A stretch of 64,000 nt of DNA from a virus. Lineage: Duplodnaviria > Caudoviricetes. Within the stretch, counting starts at the first letter, position 1. Every line of letters starts with the position of its first letter. Location: positions 13,090 to 77,089 of the IMG/VR virus record IMGVR_UViG_3300036793_000060; one strand, written 5' to 3'. The notes under the pieces are model-generated. The model made no database searches. It saw only the letters and a program-made list of their open reading frames with translations, and was not told the origin of the DNA. This document shows, in pieces, positions 13,035 to 52,646 of the stretch. Both the position numbers and the translations under genes were made by a program.

Positions 13035-13285
13035 GCGTGCGGAACTTCTGGATCGAGACGCAGGTAGACGGCCACGGCGGGATCCCCGCCACTGGCCCCA
13101 AGGCAGCCGACGGCGGGTTCACGTCCAAGTTCTGGATCCGCAAGGGCGGCGAGCATGCGGCAGTCCTCCGGCTGGAGGGCATGACCACGCACAACGGAGA
13201 CGTTGAGCTGTACGTGATCCCGTCCGAGGGCACTGAGATCGAGCGCCTGGACCACGGCGGGTTCGTGATCCGCAGCAAGCGCTAG
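13031..13285 (+). CDS. Small phage protein (RNFWIETQVDG...GPKAADGG)
   Basis: ATGA overlap; coding bias. Confidence 0.75.
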   Translation: MSVRNFWIETQVDGHGGIPATGPKAADGGFTSKFWIRKGGEHAAVLRLEGMTTHNGDVELYVIPSEGTEIERLDHGGFVIRSKR

Positions 13286-34710: not shown

Positions 34711-35622
34711 TCACACTCCAGACAGCAGGCACATCGCCAGCGGCTGGTCAAGGCCGATGGCAGCTGCCCGCTGGGTGTCGGAGCGCCAGGTCTTGCGCGG
34801 CTCGTCGCGGTAGAGAGGCCCGGCCAGGAAGGGCAGCTCGTCCGCGTAGAAGCCAGCGCGCTGGCGCTGCATGACGATGGCGTTGCCGACGGGGACCTGG
34901 CGGGACACCAGGACGTCCAGGTTGAAGATCTTCTGCGGGAGGACGCCCGTGTACTGCAGGTTCTCGCTGGCGATGTCGCCGATGTAGGGCGCCGCGAACG
35001 TGCTCGACTGGAGCAGCGTGTTCTTGGTGCCGTGGTTGATGATGAGCGTGTCCGCCTCGAAGCCGAGCCACTGGGTGACCCCGTTCGGCGAGACGATGTT
35101 GGCGTTCTCCACCAGGTAGCAGGCCTGCGCGAGGTCCGCTCGGGTGGTCGCTGACGCGGTGCTCCAGGCGTTCGCCACGGCGAGCGTCTGGATCGAGGCG
35201 TTGGCGACGGTGGCCGAGTAGAACGCGGTGTTCCAGCTGTAGACCATCGTGTTCTTGACCTGCAGCAGCTGGCGTGTCACCGGGTCGATGGCCTGCCTGC
35301 GGCGCATCTCGTCGGAGACGGTGATCGCCATCGCCCGCTCGTGGCTGAAGACCACGCGGGGCGTGCCGATCGAGGTCGGCATGACCGGGACCTCGCCGAA
35401 CTCTGCCCTGATCTCGGGGAAGTCGTCCGCGTACAGCGGGGTGGACTCCGAGTACCTGACAGCGCCGCTTGGTGCCGCGCCTCCCATGCGGAGCACGGAG
35501 TCCATGATGAACTCGTTCTCCGTGATGTCCAAGATGAGCGCGGGAATGACCAGGGGGTCCTTCAGCAGCTCATTGACGGTTACTCTCGGAGCGTCCGAGT
35601 AGCCCCTAGCGCCCGTAGGCAT
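34711..35622 (-). CDS. Major capsid protein (HK97 fold, gpE-like family)
   Basis: EIRAEFGEVPV, ITVSDEMRRR, follows the protease and decoration genes; RBS GAGAGGGAG. Confidence 0.9.
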   Translation of the reverse strand: MPTGARGYSDAPRVTVNELLKDPLVIPALILDITENEFIMDSVLRMGGAAPSGAVRYSESTPLYADDFPEIRAEFGEVPVMPTSIGTPRVVFSHERAMAITVSDEMRRRQAIDPVTRQLLQVKNTMVYSWNTAFYSATVANASIQTLAVANAWSTASATTRADLAQACYLVENANIVSPNGVTQWLGFEADTLIINHGTKNTLLQSSTFAAPYIGDIASENLQYTGVLPQKIFNLDVLVSRQVPVGNAIVMQRQRAGFYADELPFLAGPLYRDEPRKTWRSDTQRAAAIGLDQPLAMCLLSGV

Positions 35623-36171: not shown

Positions 36172-37329
36172 CTACAGGCCGACCTGTGTGCGGTACCTCG
36201 ACTTCAGCTCACTGCGAGCCTGCTCGGCGGTAGCCGTGTTGTCCGGCTCGTCCATCGGCGTGCCAAGCTCAGGACCCAGGTCCAGCAGCCGGGCAGCGTT
36301 GGAGTACTCCGTCAGCACCCGACGCATCACCAGGCCCGCGTCCACGCCCTGCCCGCCGGCCAGCTCGACGACGTGCCCCGTGCCCTCCAGCAGCGGCCGG
36401 GCCATGTCCACGATGTACGGGGGCACCCCGGCGTCGGCGAGCTTCCTGGCCTCCAGCTTGAACGCGTCCTGATCCATCTTGCGCTGCACGATTCCCAGCT
36501 GCCTCTGCGTCTCCGCCAGCTCGATGGCGGCGGGATCCCAGCCGCCGGACAGCTGCGCGGGCTGCCTCTGCTCGGCCTCGAACTCCTCCTGCATCGCCTG
36601 CAGCGACTCATCGTCGACCTGGGCGATGACCTCCGCCAGCTCCTCATCGGTGAGCAGCCTGTCATCACCGTCCCCGGCGTCGCCCGTGACGTTGTTCATC
36701 AGCGCCTCGAACGCCGAGTCGTCCAAGTCGAGCAGCCTGTCCAGCCGCGCCTGCTGCCTGGCGTCCAGTCCTGGCACTGTCTCATTCCCTTCCGAGGAGC
36801 TGTAGGTAGAAGCGGAGAGGTCGAGCACCTGCTCGACGGTGGTGTTCGACATCTCGACCGCTTCCCACGGCCCCAGGTCGGGGATGCGCGGGTCAAGCGT
36901 GCCGAGCACGTGCTGGATGGCGGCCGGGTAGCTCTTGCCGTCGCTGCGCGCGTAGTTCTCCACGATCCGCGCGGACACGCCGAGCCTGGGGTTCTCCTTC
37001 AGCAGCCGCTCGCCGCTGGGCGTGGGAACCATGCCGATGTACAGCCCGTCGTCGCGCACGTCGAAGTCGATGACCTCGCCCCGGAACCGCTCGGGGTCGT
37101 TGGTGTGCGTGTTCTTGGCGTCCGCGATCTGGAAGGGCACCTGGTCGTACGCCCTGTCGGCGAAGGACTTGGCGAGGTCTTGCAGGTAGTCACGGGTGAA
37201 CTTCAGCGTGCGGCCCATGTACTCGACGTCGTCAATGGGCAGCACCCGCTTCCACCAGACCCGCCCGCTGCCATGGACGGCGGGCTTCTGGCTGTCGAAC
37301 GGGGTGAGGACGGCTACCTGGGGCTTCAC
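36172..37329 (-). CDS. Mu gpI-type prohead protease/scaffold
   Basis: NTH...RGEV...DGLY...LGVSARI...HVLGTLDPRIPDLGPW, followed by an acidic coiled scaffold region. Confidence 0.85.
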   Translation of the reverse strand: MKPQVAVLTPFDSQKPAVHGSGRVWWKRVLPIDDVEYMGRTLKFTRDYLQDLAKSFADRAYDQVPFQIADAKNTHTNDPERFRGEVIDFDVRDDGLYIGMVPTPSGERLLKENPRLGVSARIVENYARSDGKSYPAAIQHVLGTLDPRIPDLGPWEAVEMSNTTVEQVLDLSASTYSSSEGNETVPGLDARQQARLDRLLDLDDSAFEALMNNVTGDAGDGDDRLLTDEELAEVIAQVDDESLQAMQEEFEAEQRQPAQLSGGWDPAAIELAETQRQLGIVQRKMDQDAFKLEARKLADAGVPPYIVDMARPLLEGTGHVVELAGGQGVDAGLVMRRVLTEYSNAARLLDLGPELGTPMDEPDNTATAEQARSELKSRYRTQVGL

Positions 37330-38336
37330 GAGCCACCGCCGCCGAACGAGCCGGGCTTGGTGTTCTGCGCACGCCTGGCCATCGCCATCGCCTGCGCGGG
37401 GGACAGCTTCCTGGCGATCAGCTTCTTGTAGATCGCCTGGCCGCGCGGGTTCAGCCCGTTGCCGTCGGAGCTGCCGCCGCCGCTGCTGCTGTCGTCGCCG
37501 TCGTCGGTGCTGCCTGCGAACGACCGGACGTTGGTGACGCCCAGCTGGGACAGCAGGTCAGGCTGCGGGGGAGGCCCCTGCAGCGCCATGGCAGGAGGCC
37601 GGGCCGGGTCAAGCGCGGAGCGGTTCCACGTGCCGACCAGCTCCTGCAGCGCCCCGCGCTGGTGGGTGTGCGGGGAAAGCTCTGTGCCGTCGATCAGCGA
37701 CCGCCAGGCCCCGTCGTCGCCCCTGCCCAGCTCTCCGATGTACTCCCCGCCCATCCGGTGTCGGATGACAGCCGTTCCGCCCTGCCCCCTGGTGACGATG
37801 AGGTCACCTGGGTCGCGGACGGGGATGCGCGGCCTGCCGTTGGCCATCAGGACCACGCCGCCGGGCGTGCGCTGCGTCTCGTTGGACAGGCCGGCCCCGC
37901 CGGGTCCTGTCGTCACGGTCACCTGACGTGGCCTGAAGCCAGACCGGGCGGCGTAGTCGCCGCGCGCCGGGGTCTGCAGGTCCGAGGGGGATGCCGGGTC
38001 GCTCGTGTCAGCCGTCCCGCCGCTGACCTGGAAGTCCGCGTTATCCGACCGGTACCCGCAGTTCGGGCACTGGAGCTTGCCCATCGAGGGCATGTCGTCA
38101 ATGTCGTTGTCGCCGTCGTCGGCCAGGCGGAGCACCTGGCCTTCCCAGCCGATGTTCGAGTGGACGTGTGACCCGCCGTGTCGTGACAACCTAGCCATTC
38201 CCTTCCGGCCGTACTTCTTGCGGCCGATCCACGCGGCAAGGGCGCCGGGGTTATGCGCACCGCGAGCAGCCAGGGACGCCGACAGTGCCTTGAAGTTAGC
38301 CCCGCTCCCTGGTGGTGCTCCTGCGGCAGTTGGCAC
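37326..38336 (-). CDS. Head-region protein with ALAAWIGRKKYG motif and Zn ribbon
   Basis: GTG start after GGAGGAG; NPGALAAWIGRKKYG; CPNCG. Confidence 0.75.
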   Translation of the reverse strand: MPTAAGAPPGSGANFKALSASLAARGAHNPGALAAWIGRKKYGRKGMARLSRHGGSHVHSNIGWEGQVLRLADDGDNDIDDMPSMGKLQCPNCGYRSDNADFQVSGGTADTSDPASPSDLQTPARGDYAARSGFRPRQVTVTTGPGGAGLSNETQRTPGGVVLMANGRPRIPVRDPGDLIVTRGQGGTAVIRHRMGGEYIGELGRGDDGAWRSLIDGTELSPHTHQRGALQELVGTWNRSALDPARPPAMALQGPPPQPDLLSQLGVTNVRSFAGSTDDGDDSSSGGGSSDGNGLNPRGQAIYKKLIARKLSPAQAMAMARRAQNTKPGSFGGGGS

Positions 38337-38403
38337 GGATTCTCCTCCAGGTAAGGCCATTGATCGACATAGTACGCTCATCTGCCTGCCTGGCTACTGA
38401 CGA

Positions 38404-41400
38404 TCAGTATCCGGCAGCAGACATTACCTCTCGGGTAAGGCTTGCAGCGCTCATCGCGTCCAGTCCAGCCCCGACCATCTGCCTCGCCAGCTCGGAGCGG
38501 ACCATCCTCACAAGGGCGGGCGTAGCGGCCGGCGTGGCATGCTGCACGGTCTTCTGCGACTTCTTGCGCATCCTCGCCATGCCGTAGACAGCGTCCGCCA
38601 GGGCTGGGCCGGCCGCGCCGACGGTGGCCGCCACGGCTGGGACCACCACGCCCATCATGTCCGGTACCTCGCCGTGCAAGCCGGTGAAGTACGCCCCTAT
38701 CCCGATTACCCCGCCGATCGCGACGCTCATCGCCGTGGTCAGCGCCGACCGCATGCTGTGCCGGGCCTCGTCCTTCGCCTCGATGGCAGCCTGCGACTCC
38801 TCAGCCGCCCTGGCCCGCTTCTCCTCGGCCAGCTCGCGGCCTCGCACGGTGTGCAGCTCGCGTTCTGTCTTCAGGGCGCGCTGAAACTGCTGGCGCTGAG
38901 TGCTCTCCAGCGCGGACATCCTGTCGTGCATGTCGGACATGACCTGCGCCTGTGCCCGCAGCAGGTCACCCAGGTCAGCCCTGACCGGGTCATCGACGCC
39001 GAGCTTGTCCGCCAGCTTGAATGCCGCGTCGTTCATCAGCCTGGTGTGCAGGTCCATGGCCTCGCCTGATGCCCGCCAGCCGCCGGGGGAGTGGCCTGCC
39101 AGGCGCATCTGCTCGACGGCGCCCTTCACGCTGGTGACCTTGCCCGCCGCGACCGCCTTCTGGGCGCGCAGCTCCATCCGCTTCTCGCCCGTCGTCCTCA
39201 CCGGGGTGGCCCTCGGCCGGGGGGTCGCTGCCATGGTCCGCGCCTTGCGCGCACTGCGGACCTGCATCAGCGTCGCGGCTGTCCCCGCAGGGGTGCGGCG
39301 GGGCAGCGGCTCGCCGGGCGCGCTTCCGGCCTTCACCCACCGCCCGTGCGGGCCGCGCAGCTGGCCGGGGTTGAAGTGGTGGAGCACGCCTAGCTCGACG
39401 GCTTGCGCTGCAATCCCTTGCGGATGGCCGTCGCTAGCTTGTCCGCCTCCGCCAGCCTCTCTTCCTCCGTCAGGTCCCAGTAGTCGTCCGGTATAGCCAC
39501 GTGGACCTTGCGAGGGCCAGGCGAGCTGGTGGTCTGTGATGTGCCCGCCACCGCTGCCTCCTGTACTGATCGTCTCGAACGTGTTGAGGTCGAAGATGCC
39601 CACCTGGTCCCGCTCCTTTCCCAGCCGCTCGGCTGTCGCGCGGTCTGGGACGTTCTGCGAGGGGTCGAGCCACAGCTTGCCGTCTTCCACCCATCCACCA
39701 AGGTACATGTCGTGCCCCTTGAAGGACTCCTTCTCCTTCACCAGCAGGTCGTCGATGGCGTGCCGCAGCTTCACCTGGTCATCGAGGATCTCCGCCGGGT
39801 ACCGGTGCGTGTGGCCCTCCAGCGCGACCATGAACCCGCCCGGCGGCGATTCCCCTGTGCGAGGGGATACCGAGAACCCCTCGCGGTTCTTGCTCATCGT
39901 CTCCTCGGCCTCGCGGGCGCCGGGGAACCGCGACCACCGGCCGCGCGAGTCCCGTGGCTGGAGCGGGTCGAAGTGCAGGCCCAGCTCGATCACCTGGTCA
40001 TACACGGAGTTGCTCAGGATTCCCGCCTGGTTAAGCTCGCCCGGCCATAGCGCCTTCTGGCCCTCCTTGACGATCTTCCACCGGGGCGCGCGGTACTCCG
40101 CCAGGGTGGTCCCCCTGGTGACCTGCCCCTCGGGCTTCACCTCGTAGACCCAGCCCTTCGGGCCGCCCTCCGGCTTCCCTGCGTCGAACCACTTCCTCTT
40201 CGCGGCGTCTGTCGCGTAGCCGTGCGCCTCGCGCAGGTTGGTGGTCGTCGCCTGCGTGCCGTGCATGTCGAAACCCCAGCTCTTGTCATGCCCTGGCTCG
40301 ATGTAGTCACCGACGCCGAGCTTCGCCCCTGAGCCGTGGTAGAACGTGGTCTCCGAGACCCACTTGCCGAGCGGGTCGCGTGGCTCGTGATCGTCGAATC
40401 CCAGCTCGATTGCCTGGCCCCAGATGCCTGCCAGCGCCGTGGTGCCGTGCTGGACGTCCAGGTTGTGCGCGGCGGCGTAGGAGTCCCAGTTGTCCCAGAA
40501 GTTGGCCACCGAGGTCGCCCTGCCCTTGGCTGACTTCCACGGCGTGCCCTTCTGCGCTGCCTGGATGAGCAGCTGGTCCTCCGCGTTGTTGACCCGCTGC
40601 TGGCGCTGCCAGGTGATCGCCTGCAGCTGGTGCGGGGATACGTCCTCGCCCTCAGATCGCAGCTGCTCAGCGGCCTGCCGGTACATGTCGGCGATGTGCG
40701 CGTAGCCCTGCGGGGAGTCAACGGGGGCCTGGTCCTCCTTGACCTTGCCGTCCACGTCGTCCTTGAGCAGCCGCTTGCCGGCCGCCACCGACAGGGCGTG
40801 CCGGTCGATGACCACCTCGCCGTCGCTCTCGCCGGGCAGGTCACCGCCGTTGCGGATGAGCCGGTAGAACGCCCTGGTCTTGGGCGAGGGGAAGGCGGCG
40901 TCGCCGGTCTTCCCGTCCATGATCGCCTGGGCTGTGTCCTTGATCCGCCCGGTGACGCCGATGCCCTTGTCGACGGGGTGGCCCAGCTCGATGCTGCGCG
41001 CCGCGTTCATCATGTTGACCGGCCACGCGGTCTGGGGCGAGAAGACGCTCAGCAGCGCGGCGCCCTTGTCCGCGTCCCCGCTGCCGAGCATCCGCCCGAG
41101 CAGGTGCGCGTCCGAGTACCAGCGCTTGCCTGTCTCGCGCTCGTCCGGCGTCGAGTCGTGATAGGCATCGACGATGTTCTTCGCCGACATCTGGTGCTTC
41201 GCGAAGAACGGGTGGTCAGCCGGGTCGCTGATTACGCTGCCGTCCTTGCGCCGCCTGATCAGCCGGTCATGGTCGGGCACCTTGTAGTCCGTGCCCGGCG
41301 TGTCCCAGTGCGGGTCCTCAGACTCCCTGGTGCTTGCGTCCCGCGTCCACTCCCCGTGGCGGTTACGGTGCTCAAGGGGGTCGAACCGCCAGCCCAGCTC

Positions 41401-42279
41401 GGTGACGGCCGGGGGCGGCGGCGCCTGGATCATGGCCAGCTCGATGGTGTGCGCGGTGTCGTCTCGGGCCAACACCTGGTACCTGCTGCCCCGTGGCAGC
41501 ACCCACTCTCCCAGGTCGCCTTCGCCCGGCATGACGTGCTGGCCGACCTTCGCGTGCACGATCACGTGGTACGGGGTGCCCGTGTGCTTGCGTGCCTCGG
41601 GATCGAGCACCGACGGGATCTGCGACCTGAACCGGGCGAACTGGTCAGCCCACTCAGACGACACGCTGGTGGACGTGTAGTTCGGGTCGGTGAACTGCGC
41701 GCCCGGCTTCATCTTCTCCGACAGTGCCGGGGTCATCGCGATGCCCCGGTGAAAGTCCGTGTCCTCGGCCAGCGAGTGCCTGGACTCCGCGCTGTCCAGC
41801 TTGTTAATGGCATCCTTGACGACAAGCTCGTCCTTTATGCTCCCCCGGAGCAGTGACTTGTCACCGCGCAGCAGCCCGGCGATTAGCGCATTGTCGCCGG
41901 GCGCTACGTAGTCCTCTATTGCCGTCTTCTCATTGGGTGTGTACTCACGCCCGGTTAGCTCGCTGTCCAGGTGCGGCGGCGCTGGCTGGAATCCGAAGTA
42001 CTTAGGCGGGATGGTGCCGCGCGGGTCGAGGAACCTGCCCGTGCTGTCGCTTGCCTCGTAGGGGAAGTCGACGGTCTTCCCGCCCTTGAACCGCACCGTG
42101 GCCTTGTGCTCGTCCTCGAACACGTCCGTAACCTGGCCCCTGCCGTAGTCCGGGTGCTGTACTCGGCGTCCGACCGGTGCCATCCCTGACAGGCTCCCGA
42201 CGATCCACCGCCCGTGCGACCCTCGAAGCTCGTGCTCCCAGGCAGCCAGGTCGAGCTGCTCGGATATCTGCGCGGTCAT
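38404..42279 (-). CDS. ~1291-aa polyvalent virion cargo protein (SH3-like, VIP2-type ART, DUF7178/HhH-like, Arr-type ART, SAM-lyase-like, coil plus TM)
   Basis: FHRG/YTSTS/GEWVLPRG; KRWY..SPQTAW..KTRAFY..IDRHA..QAITW; FYHGS...VYEVKPEG; GGW..LWLD..LG...DQVGIFDL. Start re-chosen at ATG 42279. Confidence 0.85.
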   Translation of the reverse strand: MTAQISEQLDLAAWEHELRGSHGRWIVGSLSGMAPVGRRVQHPDYGRGQVTDVFEDEHKATVRFKGGKTVDFPYEASDSTGRFLDPRGTIPPKYFGFQPAPPHLDSELTGREYTPNEKTAIEDYVAPGDNALIAGLLRGDKSLLRGSIKDELVVKDAINKLDSAESRHSLAEDTDFHRGIAMTPALSEKMKPGAQFTDPNYTSTSVSSEWADQFARFRSQIPSVLDPEARKHTGTPYHVIVHAKVGQHVMPGEGDLGEWVLPRGSRYQVLARDDTAHTIELAMIQAPPPPAVTELGWRFDPLEHRNRHGEWTRDASTRESEDPHWDTPGTDYKVPDHDRLIRRRKDGSVISDPADHPFFAKHQMSAKNIVDAYHDSTPDERETGKRWYSDAHLLGRMLGSGDADKGAALLSVFSPQTAWPVNMMNAARSIELGHPVDKGIGVTGRIKDTAQAIMDGKTGDAAFPSPKTRAFYRLIRNGGDLPGESDGEVVIDRHALSVAAGKRLLKDDVDGKVKEDQAPVDSPQGYAHIADMYRQAAEQLRSEGEDVSPHQLQAITWQRQQRVNNAEDQLLIQAAQKGTPWKSAKGRATSVANFWDNWDSYAAAHNLDVQHGTTALAGIWGQAIELGFDDHEPRDPLGKWVSETTFYHGSGAKLGVGDYIEPGHDKSWGFDMHGTQATTTNLREAHGYATDAAKRKWFDAGKPEGGPKGWVYEVKPEGQVTRGTTLAEYRAPRWKIVKEGQKALWPGELNQAGILSNSVYDQVIELGLHFDPLQPRDSRGRWSRFPGAREAEETMSKNREGFSVSPRTGESPPGGFMVALEGHTHRYPAEILDDQVKLRHAIDDLLVKEKESFKGHDMYLGGWVEDGKLWLDPSQNVPDRATAERLGKERDQVGIFDLNTFETISTGGSGGGHITDHQLAWPSQGPRGYTGRLLGPDGGREAGGGGQASDGHPQGIAAQAVELGVLHHFNPGQLRGPHGRWVKAGSAPGEPLPRRTPAGTAATLMQVRSARKARTMAATPRPRATPVRTTGEKRMELRAQKAVAAGKVTSVKGAVEQMRLAGHSPGGWRASGEAMDLHTRLMNDAAFKLADKLGVDDPVRADLGDLLRAQAQVMSDMHDRMSALESTQRQQFQRALKTERELHTVRGRELAEEKRARAAEESQAAIEAKDEARHSMRSALTTAMSVAIGGVIGIGAYFTGLHGEVPDMMGVVVPAVAATVGAAGPALADAVYGMARMRKKSQKTVQHATPAATPALVRMVRSELARQMVGAGLDAMSAASLTREVMSAAGY

Positions 42280-42539
42280 GAGAAGTCCAGGTCGCTCTCG
42301 CCCCAGGTGAACCGGGGCGCGTGCTGCTCGGTCGTCACCTCGGGCTGGCCTACGGTTCCCTTCAGCCTGGCCAGCATGGTGCCCGCGTCCTGGACCTGCA
42401 TGAGGGCCTTGCCGTCGGGCAGCGTCTGGGCCAGGGCGCCGACCTGCCTGATTGCCTCGTCCACCCGGCCTGCCGGGTCTTCCCACGCCCAGCTGGCGAT
42501 GTCCGCCGCCTGCTGCCCCTCGGGGGTGAGCTGGATCAT
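42276..42539 (-). CDS. Hypothetical 87-aa protein
   Basis: ATGA overlaps at both ends. Confidence 0.7.
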   Translation of the reverse strand: MIQLTPEGQQAADIASWAWEDPAGRVDEAIRQVGALAQTLPDGKALMQVQDAGTMLARLKGTVGQPEVTTEQHAPRFTWGESDLDFS

Positions 42540-44683
42540 GGCCTCGCCGCCTCTGGGTGCCTCTGTATGGCCAGTGCGTACGCCTGCGCTGCCTGCAGCG
42601 CGCGGTCGTACGCATCGCTCATCTGTACCACGGCATCCCCGCCGATCTTCGGATTCGGGCCTATCTCTCGGAGCGCGGCCTTCGTGATAGACGGGTCAGG
42701 GACGTCATTGCCTGTCGCAAGCATGGCGACCTGCGTGGCCATGGCCCACCGCTTGCCTGCCGGCCCCTGCCGGTTGATCTCGTCGGAGACCGCCCGGATG
42801 CCCTCCGGCCCGTTGCCCCTCGCGTCGGCCACCAGCCTGGCCCACTGGTAGGCGGCTGCCGTCTGCTGCGGGTAGTGACCCCACGCGTCGCCGTTCATGA
42901 TGCGGTCGGGATTCTGCAGGCGCTCCGCGTACTCGCTCAGGGTGGCGTGCTTCTGGCTGCCCAGGGCCTTCCACTCGCCGATCATCTTCCTCAGCCTGTC
43001 GGCGTCCCCGGAGAACTCCGGCCAGCCGGAGTGCTGGAGCTTGGACAGGTGCGACAGCGCATTGACGTCGTCGTGGTACACCGCGATGTACATCCGCACG
43101 TCGCCCAGTGACCGCGCGATCTCCAGGGCCTGCGCCTGGCCGTGCGGGAGCGACGAGTCCGCCAGCCTCCTCTGGATGTCGCCGATCGCCTTCTTGATCT
43201 CGCCCAGCTTGGCCAGCGCCTCCGGGTTGTCGACCGGGGCGCCGTTCTCGTCTACTGCGGTAATCGGCGTGGGACGGCCTCCCACGCCCATCGCATCGAA
43301 GAACTCCGGGGCGTGGAATATGGCCCCCAGCTCGGTATTGCCCTCCTCGATCGCCGCATTAGTCGGGTCCTGGTAGGCGGACATGTGCGCCTTGTAGCTC
43401 TCCGGCGCCTTGGGAATGGCGCTCACGCCCTTTGCTGACAGCCGCCATTCCTCGGGCTTCACTGTAATTACGCCCGCGTAGTTCTTCTCCGTCCGCTGCT
43501 CACGGTGCTCCAGGTACCCGCTGTCCGACAGGCTGGCGAGGGTGATGTCACTGGCGTCGGACAGCCCGTGCTCGGCTTGCAGCTCGGCCAGCGAGTGATA
43601 TGAGCCTTCCGGGCCGTCCCGGTACGTGAACGAGTCCATGTGGTCGAACGCCAGCAGGGCGTCGGACTGCCTCTGCGTGACGCCGGGAACCGTCCGGTCT
43701 GTGCTGCCGGGGAGCGTCCCGTGGATCAGCTCGTGCAGCTGGATCATGAGTGCCTCGGGGTGCTTGACCTCGCCGTCGGACTCCATGTCCTCGCGCACCT
43801 GGGCGGCGATCACGTCGGAGACGCGCATCCGCCCGTCCCAGTCCAGGTCAGCCTCCAGGTACGGGTTGCCCGAGGCGGCGAAGACTCCTAGCTGGCCGTT
43901 CCACGCGCTGTGCTCCCTGCCGCCGAGCAGGCCGGGCGCCCTGCCGCTGAGCAGGCCGGGCACGATCTTGGCTGCCTTGTCCGCCCACTTCAGCGCGTAC
44001 TCCTGGTCAGTGCCCTTCTGGACGACGTCGCCCTGCATCATGTTCACCCGGTGGATCAGCGACCTCAGTCGCTTCTCCTGGTTCAGGTCCCGCTTGTCGT
44101 GGGCCAGGTCAGCGGCCAGGCCTATGAAGTGCGCAGCCTTACCCCTGTAGTTCGTGTTCGGGTCGGACGCCTCCAGCACGCGCGCCGCCCAGCGCAGCCG
44201 CTCGCCGATGTCGTCGTTGCCCATGTCCTCGGCGCCCTTGGCCTCCTTGAGGATCTGGTTGCGCAGGTCGGCGTCGGTGGAGAACTTCTCCGGCTTGGGC
44301 GTGGTGTCCTTGCGGGATTCCCTCGTGATCTCGTCAATCATCGACTTCAGCGTCTCCGGGCTGCCCATCCCGCTCGCGCTGGGCTTCTCGGTGATCAGCT
44401 TGATGGCCGTCCGCAGGTGCTTCTTCGCGTCCAGCGGCTTGCCGTCCTGCAGCGCCCGGTCAGCGTCTCCCATGATCTGGCTGAAGATCGGCCACGCCCC
44501 CGGCTCACCGCCGAGCATCTGCAGCCTCTTGCTGACGCTGGAGTAGTCGGGGCCGCCGGATCCCCCGCTCCTGGCCCACTCACCGTTCTTCCCGCGCAGC
44601 TCGTGCATCCAGGCGGTCTCCCACCCCGCCAGGTCCAGCTGCTCGCTGATCAGCCCAGCGTGGCCAGTTCGATCGCCGTCCAC
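42536..44683 (-). CDS. Cargo protein with a zincin-like metallopeptidase motif
   Basis: QLHELIHG (HExxH) and downstream IEEGNTE; N-terminal QLDLA..ELRGKNGEW; RBS GGGAGG. Confidence 0.8.
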   Translation of the reverse strand: MDGDRTGHAGLISEQLDLAGWETAWMHELRGKNGEWARSGGSGGPDYSSVSKRLQMLGGEPGAWPIFSQIMGDADRALQDGKPLDAKKHLRTAIKLITEKPSASGMGSPETLKSMIDEITRESRKDTTPKPEKFSTDADLRNQILKEAKGAEDMGNDDIGERLRWAARVLEASDPNTNYRGKAAHFIGLAADLAHDKRDLNQEKRLRSLIHRVNMMQGDVVQKGTDQEYALKWADKAAKIVPGLLSGRAPGLLGGREHSAWNGQLGVFAASGNPYLEADLDWDGRMRVSDVIAAQVREDMESDGEVKHPEALMIQLHELIHGTLPGSTDRTVPGVTQRQSDALLAFDHMDSFTYRDGPEGSYHSLAELQAEHGLSDASDITLASLSDSGYLEHREQRTEKNYAGVITVKPEEWRLSAKGVSAIPKAPESYKAHMSAYQDPTNAAIEEGNTELGAIFHAPEFFDAMGVGGRPTPITAVDENGAPVDNPEALAKLGEIKKAIGDIQRRLADSSLPHGQAQALEIARSLGDVRMYIAVYHDDVNALSHLSKLQHSGWPEFSGDADRLRKMIGEWKALGSQKHATLSEYAERLQNPDRIMNGDAWGHYPQQTAAAYQWARLVADARGNGPEGIRAVSDEINRQGPAGKRWAMATQVAMLATGNDVPDPSITKAALREIGPNPKIGGDAVVQMSDAYDRALQAAQAYALAIQRHPEAARP

Positions 44684-45432
44684 GTGTCCTCCCAGCTCAG
44701 CCTCGCGTTCCGCCGCCTGTTCGCCGCCTGCTGGGCGATCAGCCTCCGCCGCGACTCGCCGGACGCGTACGCCTGGGCCTGCGCGGTTCGCCTCAGCGAC
44801 TCGGCGTTGTCGGCCGGGTTGCGGGCCAGCCCCTCGTTCATGGGCAGCTTCCGCAGCTTGTCGGCCGCCGCCGACAGCCGGTCGGAGTACTCCGGGCGCA
44901 TCCGCCGCTCAGTGGCCGAGTCTGCCTTCAGCGTCCCGGCGTGCACGCGCGCCAGGGACGGCTGGCCTCGCTCGATCATGGTGGCCGCGCGCCGGAGCGT
45001 CCTGGCCGTCTCGGACTCGGGGACCTTGTCCGGTGACGTGCCGCCGGCCCGCTGCATGTCGTGGAAGCTGGCGCCGCCGCCGTGCGTCTTGAGCAGGTTG
45101 TAGTTCTCCACCTGCCTGCGGTCGGCCTCCGCCGCCAGCGCCCTCAGCTCCTTCGCGTGCTCGGGCGACCCCGCGCTGGCGGGCATCGCCTTGTGCGCGA
45201 GGGCGCCGCGCGAACCCTCGCTGGACCGCGCCACGCCGACGGACTTCTCGCCGAACCCGCGCCTTCGCAGCGAGTTGCCCCGCAGGTCGACGCCATGCCG
45301 GCCGCCGGGCGGGACAGACGGCAGGCCTGGGCCGCCGACGTACCGCCAGCCGTGCACGTACCCCTTAGGCCCGGCCAGCTCGACCGCGCCAGCCCCCAGG
45401 ACTGCGAGCAGGATGGCCTCATCGATGTTCAC
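44650..45432 (-). CDS. Basic head-region protein
   Basis: VELAGPKGYVHGW at the N-terminus; AIELA at the C-terminus. Confidence 0.75.
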   Translation of the reverse strand: MNIDEAILLAVLGAGAVELAGPKGYVHGWRYVGGPGLPSVPPGGRHGVDLRGNSLRRRGFGEKSVGVARSSEGSRGALAHKAMPASAGSPEHAKELRALAAEADRRQVENYNLLKTHGGGASFHDMQRAGGTSPDKVPESETARTLRRAATMIERGQPSLARVHAGTLKADSATERRMRPEYSDRLSAAADKLRKLPMNEGLARNPADNAESLRRTAQAQAYASGESRRRLIAQQAANRRRNARLSWEDTWTAIELATLG

Positions 45433-47528
45433 TTGAGCCTCGCAGCCTGCGCGGTCAGCTGTGCCGCCTGCGCCTGTAGCTGGGATATCTGCGTGTTAAG
45501 CGTGGCTATGCCCGCCCTGAGCTGGGCCGCGCTCGCGGGCGGCCTGGCTGCCGTTGCCGTCGTCTTCTTCGCTGCCGTGGTGGTGGCCGTAGTCGTCTTC
45601 GCTGCCGTGGTGGTGGCTGCCGGGGCGTTGGACGCCGTGGTCGATGCCTTCGCGGTCGTCTTGGACCCCGCCTGGCCGGTTGTCACCTTGCCGCTCGCGC
45701 TGGCCAGGGCCTTCATCATCGCGTTGCGCTGGGCGATCAGCGTGTTCGCCCTGGCCCGGTCGTTCCTGGCCTGAGACAGCATCGCCGACCTCTTCTGCGC
45801 CACGACCTTCAGGTGCGACAGGTGGGCCATGTGCTTCTGGTGCGCGGTGGGCTGCTTGCCCTTGGCCTGCTGGCCCTTCTGCGCCTGCTGGCCGCCGCTG
45901 CCGTACTGGCCGAGCACGTTGCGCGAGTCCTTGGCCGATCCTGCCGCCGTGCCTGTCAGCTCGATTGCCGCGCATACGTCGTCCCACGTTGCATTAGCGT
46001 GTGCATGCGCTCTTGCCTCCGCGACCTTCTCCAGGGCAAGGCTCCCGGCCGCCGCCGCGCGCACCTCGGGGTGGACGTGGCCGCCGCCGCGCTCCCACTT
46101 GCGCAGCGCTGCCCAGGCGATCGGGTAGGCCTTCCCCGGCGGCATCCCCCTCTTCTCGATCAGGGCCTTGACCACCTGCTGGAAGTACGGGGAGTGCATG
46201 TTCCCCTTGACGTTGTACAAGCCTGGCCCGCCGGGCTTGCCGCGCGGGGCAGGGGTCGCCGCCAGCCTCGCGGTGTCCGCTGACAGGTCCAGGGCTGCCC
46301 GCTCGGCATCACCCCAGCTCGTCGACACGCCAGGCAGGCTGCGCGTGCGCTGGTCGGCCATCATCGGCCCGTAGGCCCGTGAGACCTTGCCCCACTGCGC
46401 CTGCAGATCCTTGTGCGCCTTAGTTACGCTGGCTGCCGCGCGAGGGTCGCGGGCCTGAAGGTCACTCAGCATGCGCAGCTTGGACGGGGGCCGGTAGTTG
46501 CCCACGATCGTGCGGTCCAGCAGCTCACGCCGCGCGGCCTCCTGCGCCTGCGGATCAACGTTAGCGGGGACGGACGTGTGGAAGCCCGCGTCATTCTCCA
46601 GGTCGTCATTGGACTTGCCGTGGGCGGCTGACAGCGTGGTCGCGTCAGGCTCGAACCCCAGCGCTGCCTCCTCCTTGTGCACGTACGATGTGTCATTGAC
46701 GGGGGCAGAGCGGACCTGGCCGGCCATCCTGCGCAGCGCGCTGGCGTCGCCTGGGCTGCGCGCCCGGTCTGCATTGCCGTCGATCTCATCGGCCGCCTCA
46801 TGGACCCGGCCCGCCATCACAAGGGCGGGCGCACTGGCCCGGTAGCCGGGCACGCGGTCCACCTTGTGCCGGGCGTACGCCTTCTCGATTGCATCGGCCG
46901 CCCCCGCCCGGTCCCACTCCCCGCGTGCGTTGCGACGCTCCAGGGGGTTGAACAGCGACAAGTCGATGGCACGGCCACCGCTCCTGGACGCTGCCACCTG
47001 CCTCGTGGCCGGCCCGGTGACCTTCTGCGGCATCGCCACGCTGGCGTCCGGGCCTCCGGTGGGCAGCGCCCGTGCCCCGCCCGGCTGCTGGCCCGTGGGC
47101 ACAGCCGCGAGGGGCGACGTCGGCGTGCCCTGCTCGGGGAAGTCAGACGCGCGGGGCAGCGAGTTGTTGTGGTCCTCGTCGTCGGCGATGTCCTTGACCA
47201 GCAGCAGGTGCCTGTGCACGGCGTCCATGTTCAGCTTGGCCCGGTGGTAGTCCGCGTCGCTGGTGATGCCGTGCCTGTACAGGGACTGCGGCGCGGCATT
47301 GCCGATCGCCGCCGTCAGGTGCCTCTGGGCGGCCTGAGTGGCGCCGCGCTCCAGGGCGCTGGCCGCGTCCCTCAGGTGCTGGTGCATGCCCATCTCAGGG
47401 TGGTCGTCCTTGAGCCTGCCCGCGAGCTGGCGCATGCTGCCCGCCGTCTCCCTGCGCCGGCTGGCTACCGGCCGGTAGGCCGTGGCCCTGCTCGCCGGGG
47501 GCCGGTACGATCCCGCCTTACCTGCCAC
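45429..47528 (-). CDS. Modular head-region protein (~699 aa)
   Basis: IDLSLFNPLERRNARGEW; YFQQVVKALIEKRG..AIAWAALRKW domain; Thr/Ala/Lys-rich tail. GTG start after GGAGG. Confidence 0.75.
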   Translation of the reverse strand: MAGKAGSYRPPASRATAYRPVASRRRETAGSMRQLAGRLKDDHPEMGMHQHLRDAASALERGATQAAQRHLTAAIGNAAPQSLYRHGITSDADYHRAKLNMDAVHRHLLLVKDIADDEDHNNSLPRASDFPEQGTPTSPLAAVPTGQQPGGARALPTGGPDASVAMPQKVTGPATRQVAASRSGGRAIDLSLFNPLERRNARGEWDRAGAADAIEKAYARHKVDRVPGYRASAPALVMAGRVHEAADEIDGNADRARSPGDASALRRMAGQVRSAPVNDTSYVHKEEAALGFEPDATTLSAAHGKSNDDLENDAGFHTSVPANVDPQAQEAARRELLDRTIVGNYRPPSKLRMLSDLQARDPRAAASVTKAHKDLQAQWGKVSRAYGPMMADQRTRSLPGVSTSWGDAERAALDLSADTARLAATPAPRGKPGGPGLYNVKGNMHSPYFQQVVKALIEKRGMPPGKAYPIAWAALRKWERGGGHVHPEVRAAAAGSLALEKVAEARAHAHANATWDDVCAAIELTGTAAGSAKDSRNVLGQYGSGGQQAQKGQQAKGKQPTAHQKHMAHLSHLKVVAQKRSAMLSQARNDRARANTLIAQRNAMMKALASASGKVTTGQAGSKTTAKASTTASNAPAATTTAAKTTTATTTAAKKTTATAARPPASAAQLRAGIATLNTQISQLQAQAAQLTAQAARLK

Positions 47529-48954: not shown

Positions 48955-50616
48955 TCACCCCCCTAGCTTGCCGGTAGGCGAGTTCATCGAGGGCTTGGAC
49001 GGGGGCCGTGGCGGGCCTGCGGGCGCCTGCTGCACGCGCGGCTGGCCGGCCTGCCCCGGCGTGCCCCCTGCGCGCTGCCCTGGCGCCGGGGGAGGCCGAA
49101 GCCCTCCGTTCTGCGCCCCGGCCTGCTGGGCGATGCCGAACGCGGCGCTGGTCATGCCCTGCATGGCGCCCAGGCTGCCCGCTGCCTCCGGCGGCATGCC
49201 GGGCGGCGGGTTCCCCGCCAGCTGCTCGGCGCGCTGGTTGGCGGTCGAGGACAGCGCCTCGTGCACCGCGTCCACGTCCAGCTGCAGGATCGAGGCCATC
49301 CGCTCGCAGATCATGTCGAACACGGGCAGCGGGATGTGCATGGCGGGCGCCGCGTTCAGCTGGCCGAACAGGGTCATGATCGCCTGCGCCTGCTCATCCT
49401 CCAGCGGGCCGAACTTGAACGTGGGGAAGACGGCCTTGCTGCCGAAGTTGAGCAGGATCAGCGGCCGGATCACGTCGTAGGCGATCGACTCGGAGATCTC
49501 CGTGGCGATTGCCTGCCTGGACTGCAGGAAGAAGCTGGACTGGTCCTGGGACAGGGCGAAGCTGCCCTTCCCGCCGGTAGCGCTGCCGGTCAGGGCGAGG
49601 AACCCTGCCAGGATGCTGTGCGTCTGCCAGCTCTCCAGCCAGGCCATCGCCTCGGAGAAGAACTTGCCGCCGTCGCCGCTGCCCTCCAGCACCTCGAATG
49701 TCTTGGCGTTGTCGCTCGGGCGCTCCAGGCCGACCACGCCGCTGGACTTCAGCGAGGCGATGTCGCTCGCCTTGGCGTTGGCCTCGTTCTGGTCGTTGCC
49801 GTAGACGATGGTGCGCGGCAGGGCCTGGTTCTCCAGGAAGTGGTACCAGAGGTACAGGAGCTTCATCTTGGTCTGGTAGCACCAGTAGCAGACCTCAAGC
49901 TCGGACACGCCGGTCATCGGCTCGCGGTACTTGCCGTGGGTGTAGATGTAGCTGCGCATCCGTGGGATGTCGACGTAGCCGGGGACCTTCTGCTTGCGCT
50001 GCACCATCAGGTTGCCGCCGAACAGCCACACCTGCTGGCGGAACCCGTTCGGCTCGCCGCTGCGGTCGTTGTAGCGGGCCTGGCAGGTCGCCGGGGGCCG
50101 GTAGGCGATCTTGTCGTAGATGACCTTGCCGTCGCTGTCGCGGATCTTGAACGTCTTCTCGAAGAAGGACCGCCGGAAAATCTGGGCCGACGTGACCTGG
50201 CCTATCAGCTCGGACATCGGGGTCTTCATGCCGCCCTCGGAGTCCGGCGTCATCAGGACGCTGTTCGCCAGCTTGGCCTCGCCGCTGTCCCCCTTGCCCC
50301 CGGTTATCGACCTGTCTGCCTGCCTGATCGGGAGGGTGAGTGCCTGCGCCAGCGCTGCGGAGATGCCGTCGCGGGAGAACATGACCTTCATGTCCCTCGC
50401 GCCCCACTCGCCTTAAACCGTAGTCAAAGACATCACCTTCCCCATAGTACGCAAACAACCTCTGACCCCAGTCAAATTGGGTAATTGCGTGCCGATCTCC
50501 GGACCAAGCAGCGAGCGCCTACCTCCGCCCGCAGACTTGCTCCCCTTTGGGGGAAGATCAGGAAACTCAACTACATTCTCTAGTCCAGCTACCTTCTTCT
50601 TGGATGAATCAACCAC
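48955..50616 (-). CDS. Portal protein (Mu gp29/DUF935-like), predicted 548 aa after two translational bypasses
   Basis: Main frame: LTLPI, YTHG...GVSEL, P....Y, GSFALSQDQSSFF. The 5' part is split into 50616-50485, 50476-50417 and 50409 onward by 8- and 7-nt TTA-containing gaps. Confidence 0.85.
50410..50419 (-). other. Candidate bypass site 2: GGU (take-off), UUA, A, GGC (landing); 7 nt skipped
   Basis: Minus strand reads gac tac GGT TTA A GGC gag tgg. Confidence 0.75.
50477..50487 (-). other. Candidate bypass site 1: CAA (take-off), UUA, CC, CAA (landing); 8 nt skipped
   Basis: Minus strand reads ggc acg CAA TTA CC CAA ttt gac tgg. Confidence 0.75.
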
Positions 50617-50683: not shown

Positions 50684-52342
50684 TCAGCGGTAAGGATGCA
50701 CGACCGCTCGCCCAGACGGGCGTGCTGACTCGTCGTCGTCGGCCGGCTGGGGGGCGAACCCGTCGGGCGTCCAGTCGCCGCCCGCGACGTTGTAGGCGCC
50801 TCCGTGCGCGGTCACCAGGCGCCTGCTGGCCTGCGCCTCCTTGCTCGGCTCGGTGGGCGAGAACCCGAGCGAGCCGCCCGCCGCGTCCAGGATCGCCGAG
50901 TCGGAGTCAGTGGCCCACTTGCGGGGCCGTGCGGCCTCCTGCGGGACGCTGGACAGGTACAGGAACTTCTGCAGCGCCCAGACCATCGAGTCCATCCTGT
51001 CCGGGGACCGCTCGCCCTCAGCCCCGGTGAACGTCTTCATCTGGTCCTCAAGCTCGATCATGCCCTCGGAGTCCAGCTCGCCCTGCCTGTCGCGGCGCTC
51101 CATCTTGCAGTGCCGGACCTTCATCCGCTGGTACAGCGCGGCCACCGGCTCAGCGCGGGTGCGCTTGTTCTGGCTGGCCCATACCTCCTCGATCACCGGC
51201 ACGTGGCCGGGCGGCACCAGCCCGTCTGCCTGCAGCTCCTTGATGACCTGCCGGAACATGGAGATCATCCACTGCCCGCCGTGGTTGCGCTCGACCACGA
51301 TCCGCGCCTGCCACTGCACGGCCTTCAGCACTACCCTGCGCCCGAACTGCGGCGGAGACTCCTGGCCGCCCCAGTTCTCGGCCACGTACACCGTGTCGTC
51401 GCCGCCGAACCCCAGCCCGGCGATCGTGTAGGCCTGCTCGTCGGAGGTCTCGGTGCCGTCGGAGGGGTCGACGCCGATCACCGCGTTGCGCAGCCACGGC
51501 TCGCCGTCCGGCCCGCTGATCGCCGGGACCTGGATGGACTCCAGCAGCTCAAGCGTCCACATCGCGTTGGGGACGTCGTCGAGCAGGACGCCCTCAAGCT
51601 CCTGCCGCTCAAGCCGGGTTCCCCTGCTCGCGCCGATGACCGTCCGGTAGAACGCGTCGGACAGGTTGTCCCGGTTGTCGACGGTGCGCAGCCGGCGCGA
51701 GATGACCCCGCCGTGCTCCTCCTCGTTGCGCAGCAGGGACCGGAACAGCCGGGCGGCCGGCCTGGCTGCCTTGGGCGTGGCCGTCGCGATGATCACAGAC
51801 ACGCCATGGCGCACCGCGTACCGCAGCGACTCATTCCAGGTGGTCTCCCACTTCTCCCACAGGCCGATCTCGTCGCACCAGGCAGCCTTCAGGTTGCGGC
51901 CCTGGATCCGCAGGCCTCCCTCAGCGGCCGAGTCGATGTAGACGACGATGCCGCTGTGCAGGATCACCTGGCCGTAGGTGCGCCACGCGTTCCGAACCGT
52001 CTTGGACGTGTGCGCCTTGACCTCCTTCATCGAGGTCCCCAGCGCCCTCAGCAGGCCGGACTCGCCCTCGACGCACTTGGTCCAGGCGTCGGCGTAGGTG
52101 GGCGCCACGATGCCGTACTCACCCTCGCCGTCGGTGTCGCCCTGGATGATCTCGGCCAGGTCTTGCGCGCCGGCCCGCGTCTTCCCGGACCCGCGCCCGC
52201 CGGACAGCAGCAGGACCCGCCAGCTGCCGTCCATCGGGGGCAGCAGCTGGTCGGGCCTGGCGTCCTGCCGCCAGCGGACGCGCGGGTCTCCTGCGGGCTT
52301 CTCGAACCGTGCCTGCACCATGCCGAGGACCGCGAGGTCCAC
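50684..52342 (-). CDS. terL: Terminase large subunit
   Basis: LSGGRGSGKTRAG Walker A, AWCDEIG Walker B, TATPK, IGVDPS, SPDRMDSMVWA. Confidence 0.95.
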   Translation of the reverse strand: MDLAVLGMVQARFEKPAGDPRVRWRQDARPDQLLPPMDGSWRVLLLSGGRGSGKTRAGAQDLAEIIQGDTDGEGEYGIVAPTYADAWTKCVEGESGLLRALGTSMKEVKAHTSKTVRNAWRTYGQVILHSGIVVYIDSAAEGGLRIQGRNLKAAWCDEIGLWEKWETTWNESLRYAVRHGVSVIIATATPKAARPAARLFRSLLRNEEEHGGVISRRLRTVDNRDNLSDAFYRTVIGASRGTRLERQELEGVLLDDVPNAMWTLELLESIQVPAISGPDGEPWLRNAVIGVDPSDGTETSDEQAYTIAGLGFGGDDTVYVAENWGGQESPPQFGRRVVLKAVQWQARIVVERNHGGQWMISMFRQVIKELQADGLVPPGHVPVIEEVWASQNKRTRAEPVAALYQRMKVRHCKMERRDRQGELDSEGMIELEDQMKTFTGAEGERSPDRMDSMVWALQKFLYLSSVPQEAARPRKWATDSDSAILDAAGGSLGFSPTEPSKEAQASRRLVTAHGGAYNVAGGDWTPDGFAPQPADDDESARPSGRAVVHPYR

Positions 52343-52352
52343 GGCGTGCGGG

Positions 52353-52646
52353 CTAGCCGTAGATGGCACGCCAGTGCTCGCGGACGTCTTCCTTCGCGTC
52401 ATCCCACTCGGGCAGCTCCTCGCCCCGGACGGACACGTAGCCCGCGTGCTGGGCGTACCGCTGGTAGCCGCCCTTCGCCATCGCCTCACGGTGCTCGGGG
52501 TGCTGCGCCAGCAGCCTGCCCAGCTCATTCCAGAAGCTGGCCACGTGGCCCCTGTCCTCGGTGACCAGGTTCGTGACGGGTCCGTAGGTCGTCCTGACCG
52601 TGACCTGGTCCTTCGCCGTGCCCTCCCAGCTCGCGCTGAGCGTCAT
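52353..52646 (-). CDS. Hypothetical protein
   Basis: RBS GGAGG before ATG 52646. Confidence 0.65.
   Translation of the reverse strand: MTLSASWEGTAKDQVTVRTTYGPVTNLVTEDRGHVASFWNELGRLLAQHPEHREAMAKGGYQRYAQHAGYVSVRGEELPEWDDAKEDVREHWRAIYG

Follow-up and report, generated by a model that had tools for sequence, protein, structure and literature searches.

To our knowledge, almost nothing is known outside T4 and P1 about how the enzymes that phages inject, and that disarm host defences, are chosen for loading, processed and released. Here we analyzed a 64-kb window (positions 13,090 to 77,089 of IMG/VR record IMGVR_UViG_3300036793_000060, a 77,089-bp contig from an uncultured phage; GC content of the window 65–72%), in which a linker signal of ~25 residues recurs within the stretch of six genes between those for a MuF-like minor head protein and the prohead protease. 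The motif consists of a first half, [IVL][ED]L[GAS] (hereafter the half-site), and a second half, F[DN]Px[EQ]PRDxxG[RK]W (the tag), followed by a Gly-rich stretch. It had been noticed earlier in a reading of the window's letters alone, which took the half-site for a protease site and the tag for a capsid-targeting peptide (the original prediction). Such a composite signal may reveal the way in which enzymes are loaded, separated by cutting and injected by phages. The nearest known counterparts are polyvalent proteins, MuF toxins, the T4 targeting sequence and the P1 DarB signal; what appears to be new is a sharply defined and widespread junction tag.

The capsid-targeting sequence (CTS) of T4, carried by IPI-III and Alt and removed by gp21, is a short N-terminal signal on unrelated, fast-evolving injected anti-defence proteins (PMC3012670, PMC7411985). 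The window shares with it the protease fold (Z 9.3), an acidic residue in the putative cleavage site and an ADP-ribosyltransferase (ART) among the cargo. However, the T4 CTS has no sequence likeness to the window motif, which is known from sequence alone, repeats inside polyproteins and has a widely conserved second half downstream of the putative cut; the mature protein would retain this half, unlike the CTS, which is discarded. DarB of P1, a giant antirestriction protein, is likewise sent into the head by its first ≤30 residues (PMC9024508), but the Dar N-termini are without a consensus according to the P1 authors (PMC9024508), in contrast to the tag, which is sharply conserved across many phage lineages. 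Known terminal packaging peptides also take a non-structural protein into the procapsid by a short terminal peptide; unlike the window motif, they are C-terminal, present in single copy and lineage-specific.

Polyvalent proteins (Iyer, Burroughs, Anand, de Souza and Aravind 2017, PMC5512222) are, in the accessible parts of that paper, strings of unrelated effectors (ART, zincin MPTase, ParB, GNAT, kinase) encoded by portal-terminase phages, with packaging, injection and processing predicted for them. Those parts credit zincin peptidases and contain no conserved junction peptide, whereas in the window the motif heads every module. The largest cargo protein of the window (1291 aa) joins at least two unrelated effector domains in one chain, and the locus lies in the head module of a portal-terminase phage, flanked on the same strand by terminase, portal, MuF, protease and major capsid protein (MCP) genes. 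Domain matches and matches of the neighboring genes thus bear out the expectation of polyvalent effector proteins within the head module. MuF polymorphic toxins and pre-toxin motifs (Zhang et al. 2012, PMC3482391; Jamet et al. 2017, PMC5576092) follow a similar plan, a head anchor and a variable C-terminal toxin with a conserved boundary between them, and the tag-bearing proteins described below include MuF fusions and classic toxin domains. Portal and S78 anchors and the tag itself were not found in the accessible parts of these two papers.

We propose that the locus is a head-cargo cassette that lies between portal/MuF and prohead protease and encodes polyvalent effectors (among them two ART types, DUF7178 and a putative zincin), in which each effector module would be headed by a composite linker signal of two parts. 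The first part, h-h-[ED]-L-[GAS], would be cut inside the procapsid by the phage's own protease of the gp21/assemblin fold, to which four similar sites in its own scaffold tail are probably substrates as well. The second part, [FYW][DN]Px[EQ]PRDxxG[RKE]W plus a flexible stretch, comes immediately after it; it is one form of a widespread cargo-module tag, is placed in a disordered linker and is presumably read in trans. Once freed by cleavage, each module would begin with the tag and be delivered together with the DNA. That cleavage takes place, which protease performs it, and that the products are packaged and injected are all predicted here from sequence, and the reading as a whole, namely a docking/processing element read in trans by the head assembly/maturation machinery, with a cut at a lineage-specific site just upstream, has in our judgment an even chance of being right.

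The two-part motif at module boundaries

All seven two-part copies of the original prediction are present on the minus strand, five in the 1291-aa gene and one each in the 715-aa and 699-aa genes (Table 1). A six-frame scan of the whole 77-kb genome confined the complete pattern to these three genes. A hidden Markov model (HMM) trained on the copies of the window and of three related IMG/VR loci recovered 22 copies scoring 14–51 in the genome and these loci, while the next best six-frame match scored 5.9; without exception, the 22 copies are on the coding strand and fall in the interval from MuF to the protease, and further relatives retrieved by DNA pattern showed the same placement. The predicted restriction of the motif to this locus therefore holds in both scans. 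The nucleotide identity among the copies is 64–74%, indicating that selection acts on the peptide, and on the same values we reject the idea that the repeats arose by recent duplication of DNA.

The motif marks the boundaries of modules and the N-termini of stand-alone cargo genes. The 1291-aa protein reads tag 1, ART, tag 2, DUF7178, tag 3, Arr-like domain, tag 4, an unassigned module, tag 5 and a C-terminal region, and the internal copies, which separate unrelated domains (ART, DUF7178, Arr-like), stand in linkers that AlphaFold predicts to be disordered. In the AlphaFold (AF2) model of residues 281–651, the DUF7178 core had a predicted local distance difference test (pLDDT) score of >90, and both flanking tags were irregular with pLDDT 33–58, suggesting that the motif is a short linear signal in linkers and not part of a domain. 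In the stand-alone cargo genes of the window and of the related loci L001, L002 and L005, the motif starts at residue 2–30.

The same modules are fused in one phage and separate in another, bounded by the motif throughout. In L002, the DUF7178 module that is internal in the window opens a 920-aa protein, whose C-terminal module is encoded on its own in L005, by a 380-aa gene. Conversely, the 843-aa protein of L001 has, behind a full motif, an internal module to which the 260-aa gene of the window is homologous.

The half-site also occurs alone. The lone half-sites of the 260-aa gene (VELA, IELA), the 699-aa gene (LDLS, IELT) and the protease/scaffold gene (VLDLS, AIELA, VVELA) are as the original prediction quoted them, and the protease/scaffold has a fourth, LLDLG. 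Those of the 699-aa gene lie at 46281–46292 and 45954–45965, the latter at the position of a full motif in the relatives L002 and L005; the second one of the 260-aa gene, at 44662–44673, is 5 residues ahead of the stop codon. Counted with the pattern [IVL][ED]L[AGST], the half-site occurs 15 times in the locus (3148 aa) against 1.6 expected, a ninefold enrichment, and 3 times in the rest of the genome (18,632 aa) against 9.6 expected. None is found in the MCP, the portal or MuF, and there is a single one when the terminase is included. The under-representation outside the locus is an observation in its own right, and might reflect avoidance of a protease site.

The second half across phages and bacteria

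The second half is apparently a widespread and undescribed tag on head-carried phage proteins, as judged from its distribution in sequence databases. When 1.84 billion representative proteins were searched with a profile made from the 22 copies, 869 protein clusters matched at E ≤0.001 and 178 at ≤1e-10. Most of the matches are proteins of 500–3000 aa with 2–9 copies; the top 150 proteins contain 553 copies, spaced at a median of 268 aa, and 68 of these proteins have their first copy ≤15 residues from the N-terminus. For the four-residue half-site, which is short on its own, one could imagine that it recurs by chance or through the composition of a genome with 68% GC. This explanation is refuted by the gap in HMM scores (≥14 versus 5.9) together with the strict restriction to the locus, by the numbers of database matches, and by the ninefold enrichment of the half-site in the locus with depletion elsewhere, and we give it practically no credence.

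A logo of 541 anchored copies shows F/Y at −6, D/N/W at −5, P at −4, E/Q at −2 and P/L/A at −1, followed by R (100%), D (75%), G (100%), R/E/K, W (99%), T (61%) and a Gly-rich stretch. The ELx half accompanies 216 of the 541 copies, and distant matches retain the second half only; by this comparison of sequences, the first half is specific to the lineage of the window phage and the second half is far more widespread. We set aside self-cleavage at the Asp/Asn-Pro bond, as roughly half of the lineage's copies are without D/N-P; in N-terminal copies such self-cleavage would remove only ~4 residues.

What follows the tag is diverse. In a domain tally of 34 motif-bearing proteins, DUF7178 was present in 25 and an alpha/beta hydrolase in 6, and the rarer domains were GNAT, ParB, PI3/4-kinase-like, ART, ART-PolyVal, Acb1, LPD1, Arr, ATLF zincin and MuF. 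One motif-bearing polyprotein (among P0002–P0035) contains an Acb1 anti-CBASS domain (3e-39), and others have PI3/PI4-kinase-like, ParB_N and Abhydrolase_8 modules, a content that directly supports anti-defence cargo in the motif-bearing family. No Pfam-A family covers the tag in the scanned tag-bearing proteins (34 + 70 + 50), and the described pre-toxin families PT-VENN, PT-TG and PT-HINT are absent from the Pfam matches of the same proteins. In the accessible parts of the literature on polyvalent proteins, MuF toxins, the T4 CTS and P1 DarB we found no published account of the tag, which does not by itself prove its novelty. For the distant tag protein P0017, viral and metagenome contigs yielded no homologous loci.

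An exact DNA pattern for the tag retrieved 53 IMG/VR loci with 37–70% GC. Thirteen of the tag-bearing open reading frames (ORFs) in these loci have portal domains (HK97, lambda, Mu and a fourth type) and four have MuF, while others encode ARTs, Zeta toxin, InPase, topoisomerase IB, NUDIX, lysozyme or DarB-like proteins; two match the PHROG family 'DarB-like antirestriction'. Summed over 140 neighboring ORFs, the PHROG family counts were dominated by head-module functions, with 24 for portal, 26 for major head, 21 for head protease and 18 for large terminase. Where the tag is fused to a portal, it stands just behind the portal crown helix, and a hypervariable Cys-rich module of 90–190 aa comes next. 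By analogy with MuF toxins these fusions look like portal-anchored polymorphic effectors, of which the accessible parts of the polymorphic-toxin and MuF papers make no mention. The HK97-type portal fusions with the tag were seen in L035, L042, L043, L054, L056, L077, L088, L093 and L098.

Among cultured phages, tblastn with two short queries gave 9 + 13 records with weak E-values. Apart from one in a Microviridae record, all of these matches are at the beginning of a gene in the head module whose annotation is capsid maturation protease (phrog_12708). The carriers are the cluster-H mycobacteriophages Thumb, Damien, Konstantine and Predator and the Nocardia phage P3.1; their tag starts at residue 3–6, and the adjoining genes encode a JAB (JAB/M67) peptidase, MuF, scaffold and capsid. 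In Thumb gp10 (L016, 6736–7509) and its P3.1 counterpart (L017, 6986–7696), the tag is followed by a very basic low-complexity stretch, and neither has a Pfam match.

Bacterial genomes provided 48 loci, mostly from Hyphomicrobiales and other Alphaproteobacteria, with further carriers in Amycolatopsis, Actinoplanes, a Nitrospinota metagenome-assembled genome and Sediminibacterium. Of 50 tag ORFs scanned from these loci, 10 have portal domains and 2 have Peptidase_S78, and their C-terminal domains include CdiA-CT RNase A-like, Ntox50, EndoU, Tox-REase-5 and CHAP. Many small chromosomal proteins (L073–L118, mainly Hyphomicrobiales) consist of an N-terminal amphipathic helix of ~40 aa, the tag and a variable module of 150–320 aa, which in some is an RNase or nuclease toxin domain; a prophage remnant or a gene transfer agent would be among the candidate routes for their delivery.

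These contexts fit one grammar at the level of sequence: an anchor (portal, MuF, S78 protease, the previous module, or none), a lineage-specific site, the tag, a flexible stretch and a variable module. Polyvalent proteins, MuF toxins and portal-fused toxins would thereby be linked as anchor or none, protease site, tag and module. The tag as a capsid-targeting peptide survives only in part. It does occur in head modules; however, it also stands after portal, MuF and S78 domains and in chromosomal toxin-like proteins. A pure address label is inadequate, because the tag is kept after portal and MuF domains that are already in the head, and for this reason we favor a docking/processing element. 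A pure cleavage site is inadequate as well, since tags occur at residue 2–6. The tag after portal, MuF and S78 domains, together with the chromosomal toxin-like copies, rather points to something that every module needs at its N-terminal edge, such as processing, docking or ejection.

The portal fusions bring in an explanation of another kind, in which the tag would mark a 'pre-toxin' boundary, as VENN does in CdiA, and would mainly serve either module swapping by recombination or a post-delivery role (tail threading, entry, activation) instead of head assembly, or else be an ejection leader. The arrangement of portal crown, tag and Cys-rich module is indeed a conserved motif ahead of variable C-terminal modules on a trafficking domain, as in pre-toxins. 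Moreover, portal-, MuF- and S78-anchored proteins carry hypervariable C-terminal modules, including classic toxin domains, directly after the tag; modules are shuffled between phages; chromosomal copies occur outside clear head modules; and each released module would retain its own copy, as an ejection leader would need. Nevertheless, copies with 64–74% DNA identity are a poor substrate for homologous recombination, and the near-invariance of R, G and W over the 541 copies implies a biochemical reader. One head-module protein has the tag at residue 3; provided that its annotation as maturation protease is correct, this suits assembly over ejection. We therefore consider the pre-toxin explanation unlikely.

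The disorder and the N-terminal copies raise a further alternative, that nothing is cut and the motif is a repeated docking peptide for the scaffold, the capsid interior, the portal or MuF, with additional copies adding avidity and the giant proteins packaged and ejected whole. This would suit a disordered short linear motif, as well as copies at the extreme N-terminus, where cutting removes nothing useful. There are precedents, too, for uncut passage and for a short packaging signal: transfer without cutting is described for the N4 vRNAP and for several polyvalent proteins of plasmids in the accessible parts of PMC5512222, and the first 30 residues of P1 DarB suffice for packaging (PMC9024508). 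Docking without cleavage is nonetheless improbable in our view: the tag is retained after portal, MuF and S78 domains, which require no address; sister phages have these modules working as individual genes; and small toxin modules fused to the portal could not exit the head uncut.

The broadest claim is that the second half is a general tag marking head protein cargo across many tailed-phage lineages, read by a conserved assembly, maturation or ejection component and with the protease site of the respective lineage in front of it. Portals of the HK97, lambda and Mu types accompany the tag, and it occurs in prophages from several phyla, including Alphaproteobacteria and Actinomycetota; we put this claim forward tentatively, as somewhat less probable than its contrary. 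If it is true, the injected proteome would be predictable from sequence alone, and the tag would offer a portable handle for loading foreign proteins. A module-heading peptide would also serve as a sequence rule for spotting injected effectors in metagenomes, its carriers already including ARTs, Acb1, DarB-like proteins, nucleases and kinases, and would explain the free swapping of cargo modules between phages.

The first half and the prohead protease

The protease of the locus had been called Mu-type, a label that our searches do not bear out. It has no Pfam match even at E 10 (including S77/S78/S21 and the Mu-like protease) and no sequence match in the PDB, and only its protease-plus-scaffold arrangement resembles Mu I/Z. 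The AF2 model contains a confident domain (residues 1–145), a disordered linker (146–182) and a helical tail. Foldseek matched the model to T4 gp21 (5jbl; probability 1.0, E 3e-4), and VIA gave Z 9.3 with a root-mean-square deviation of 4.0 Å over 131/166 aligned residues; the next VIA matches were ~25 herpesvirus assemblin entries with Z 4–6. The fold is thus that of T4 gp21 and the herpesvirus assemblins, and the kinship is visible at the fold level only, given that no sequence family matches. Aligned with 44 homologs, H75, S119 and H140 are invariant, in the order His-Ser-His, and are putative catalytic residues. 

The scaffold tail contains four h-h-[ED]-L-[SAG] sites conserved across the 44 homologs. 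At the first of them, which belongs to the disordered linker immediately C-terminal to the protease domain, D170 and L171 are invariant. Related proteases offer a background for such a site, since the studied members of this fold cleave behind Glu within short motifs: the SPN3US protease cuts after AXE, a specificity 'reminiscent of T4 gp21', and T4 strips N-terminal targeting propeptides (CTS) of 10–20 aa (PMC7411985), while the P1 major capsid protein is cleaved between E120 and S121 (PMC9024508). By this analogy, and with the enrichment and the fold, the [IVL][ED]L[GAS] half is consistent with a site cut by the prohead protease. Of the original assignment of ELx as the protease site, the enrichment confined to cargo and scaffold tail and the gp21/assemblin fold speak in favor; the cutter, on the other hand, could be a zincin. 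We keep the assignment as an inference because the pattern is short and post hoc, two of the scaffold sites lie in predicted secondary structure and no capsid substrate anchors it.

The putative zincin in question is a module of the cargo itself (HELIH, in the 715-aa protein), which might cut before, during or after injection with the prohead protease uninvolved. A module with LHELIH ... EEG.TE is conserved in 43 of the 150 top motif-bearing proteins, mostly as the last module, and relatives of the 715-aa protein match Pfam ATLF. A conserved enzyme module would suit a conserved tag, and MPTase processing of polyvalent proteins was predicted in the accessible parts of PMC5512222. However, the module is missing from most motif-bearing proteins, so that it would need to act in trans from a neighboring gene; none was seen in the portal-tag-toxin fusions or in the cluster-H phages; the half-sites in the scaffold tail would be left unexplained; and the window's own zincin is without Pfam support. 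Cutting by the zincin is a credible alternative, though less likely than cutting by the prohead protease.

Several points weigh against cleavage by the prohead protease as we propose it, beyond the presence of this second candidate cutter in the cargo. The half-site has only four residues and its pattern was defined post hoc. Two of the four scaffold sites are in a predicted helix or strand, where conservation could be structural. The MCP has no half-site, so the specificity is anchored by no known substrate, and D in place of E in several copies is unusual among gp21-type sites. Motif copies at the N-terminus leave almost nothing for cleavage to remove. Finally, many bacterial tag genes are not beside head genes, and their neighbors are mostly ordinary cell genes. 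Comparing by eye, we saw no clear signal of covariation between the junction half-site and the linker site of the same phage's protease. A complex prediction of the protease/scaffold with a motif peptide scored 0.01; run without controls, it is evidence neither way.

Gene map of the head module

The head module is on the minus strand in the order terminase, portal, MuF-like protein, six genes, protease/scaffold and MCP; as originally described, five of the six genes are large, and the sixth is an 87-aa ORF (Table 1). Megablast of the locus found no DNA-level relative among cultured phages, and tblastn with the 1291-aa protein matched only DUF7178 homologs in Streptomyces phages, far from head genes.

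Table 1 Coordinates of the head-module genes, motif copies and scaffold-tail sites in the window.
Feature	Position	Strand	Remarks
Large terminase	50684-52528	−	First in the gene order
Mu-type portal	48955-50391	−	Pfam Portal_Mu 2.8e-32; without motif
MuF-like minor head protein, 227 aa	47518-48201	−	Phage_Mu_F 28.2 bits (cut-off 29.6); without motif
699-aa cargo gene	45429-47528	−	First cargo gene after MuF; conserved N-terminal module, motif at 46914-46970, then variable modules
260-aa cargo gene	44650-45432	−	Degenerate N-terminal motif; half-site at 45373-45384
715-aa cargo gene	42536-44683	−	N-terminal motif at 44576-44641; HELIH ... EEG.TE zincin-like module
87-aa ORF	42276-42539	−	Flanked by the 715-aa and 1291-aa cargo genes, with a start/stop overlap (ATGA) on either side; without motif
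1291-aa polyvalent cargo gene	38404-42279	−	Five motif copies
Motif copy 1	42205-42258	−	N-terminus of the 1291-aa protein, aa 8-25
Motif copy 2	41347-41406	−	Between ART and DUF7178, aa 292-311
Motif copy 3	40360-40413	−	Between DUF7178 and Arr-like domain, aa 623-640
Motif copy 4	39934-39993	−	1291-aa protein, aa 763-782
Motif copy 5	39337-39402	−	1291-aa protein, aa 960-981
351-aa gene	37326-38381	−	Directly upstream of the protease; homologs in the same position in L001-L014
Protease/scaffold, 385 aa	36172-37329	−	Prohead protease (residues 1-145) and helical scaffold tail
Scaffold-tail sites	36814-36828, 36514-36528, 36358-36372, 36274-36288	−	Four conserved h-h-[ED]-L-[SAG] sites
Major capsid protein	34711-35622	−	phrog_1650 3.6e-69; without motif, without half-site

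The MuF-like protein also matches PHROG minor head and head morphogenesis families. In the 1291-aa protein, Pfam matched ADPrib_exo_Tox (weak, 19.5 bits), DUF7178 (1e-31) and Arr-ms (weak), PHROG matched an Alt-like ART, and the C-terminal region holds hydrophobic stretches. The 715-aa protein has no Pfam match to a zincin or any other family, and for the 351-aa gene we found no motif, half-site, Pfam match or PHROG match.

The true start of the 715-aa gene may be a rare CTG at 44653, overlapping the upstream stop codon (CTGA), instead of the GTG at 44683; the CTG start would place the motif at residue 2. The 87-aa ORF could encode a partner (inhibitor or immunity-like) of a neighboring module. 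Among the relatives L007–L012, the MCP is ~90% identical, the portal ~68%, and the protease and MuF each ~50%.

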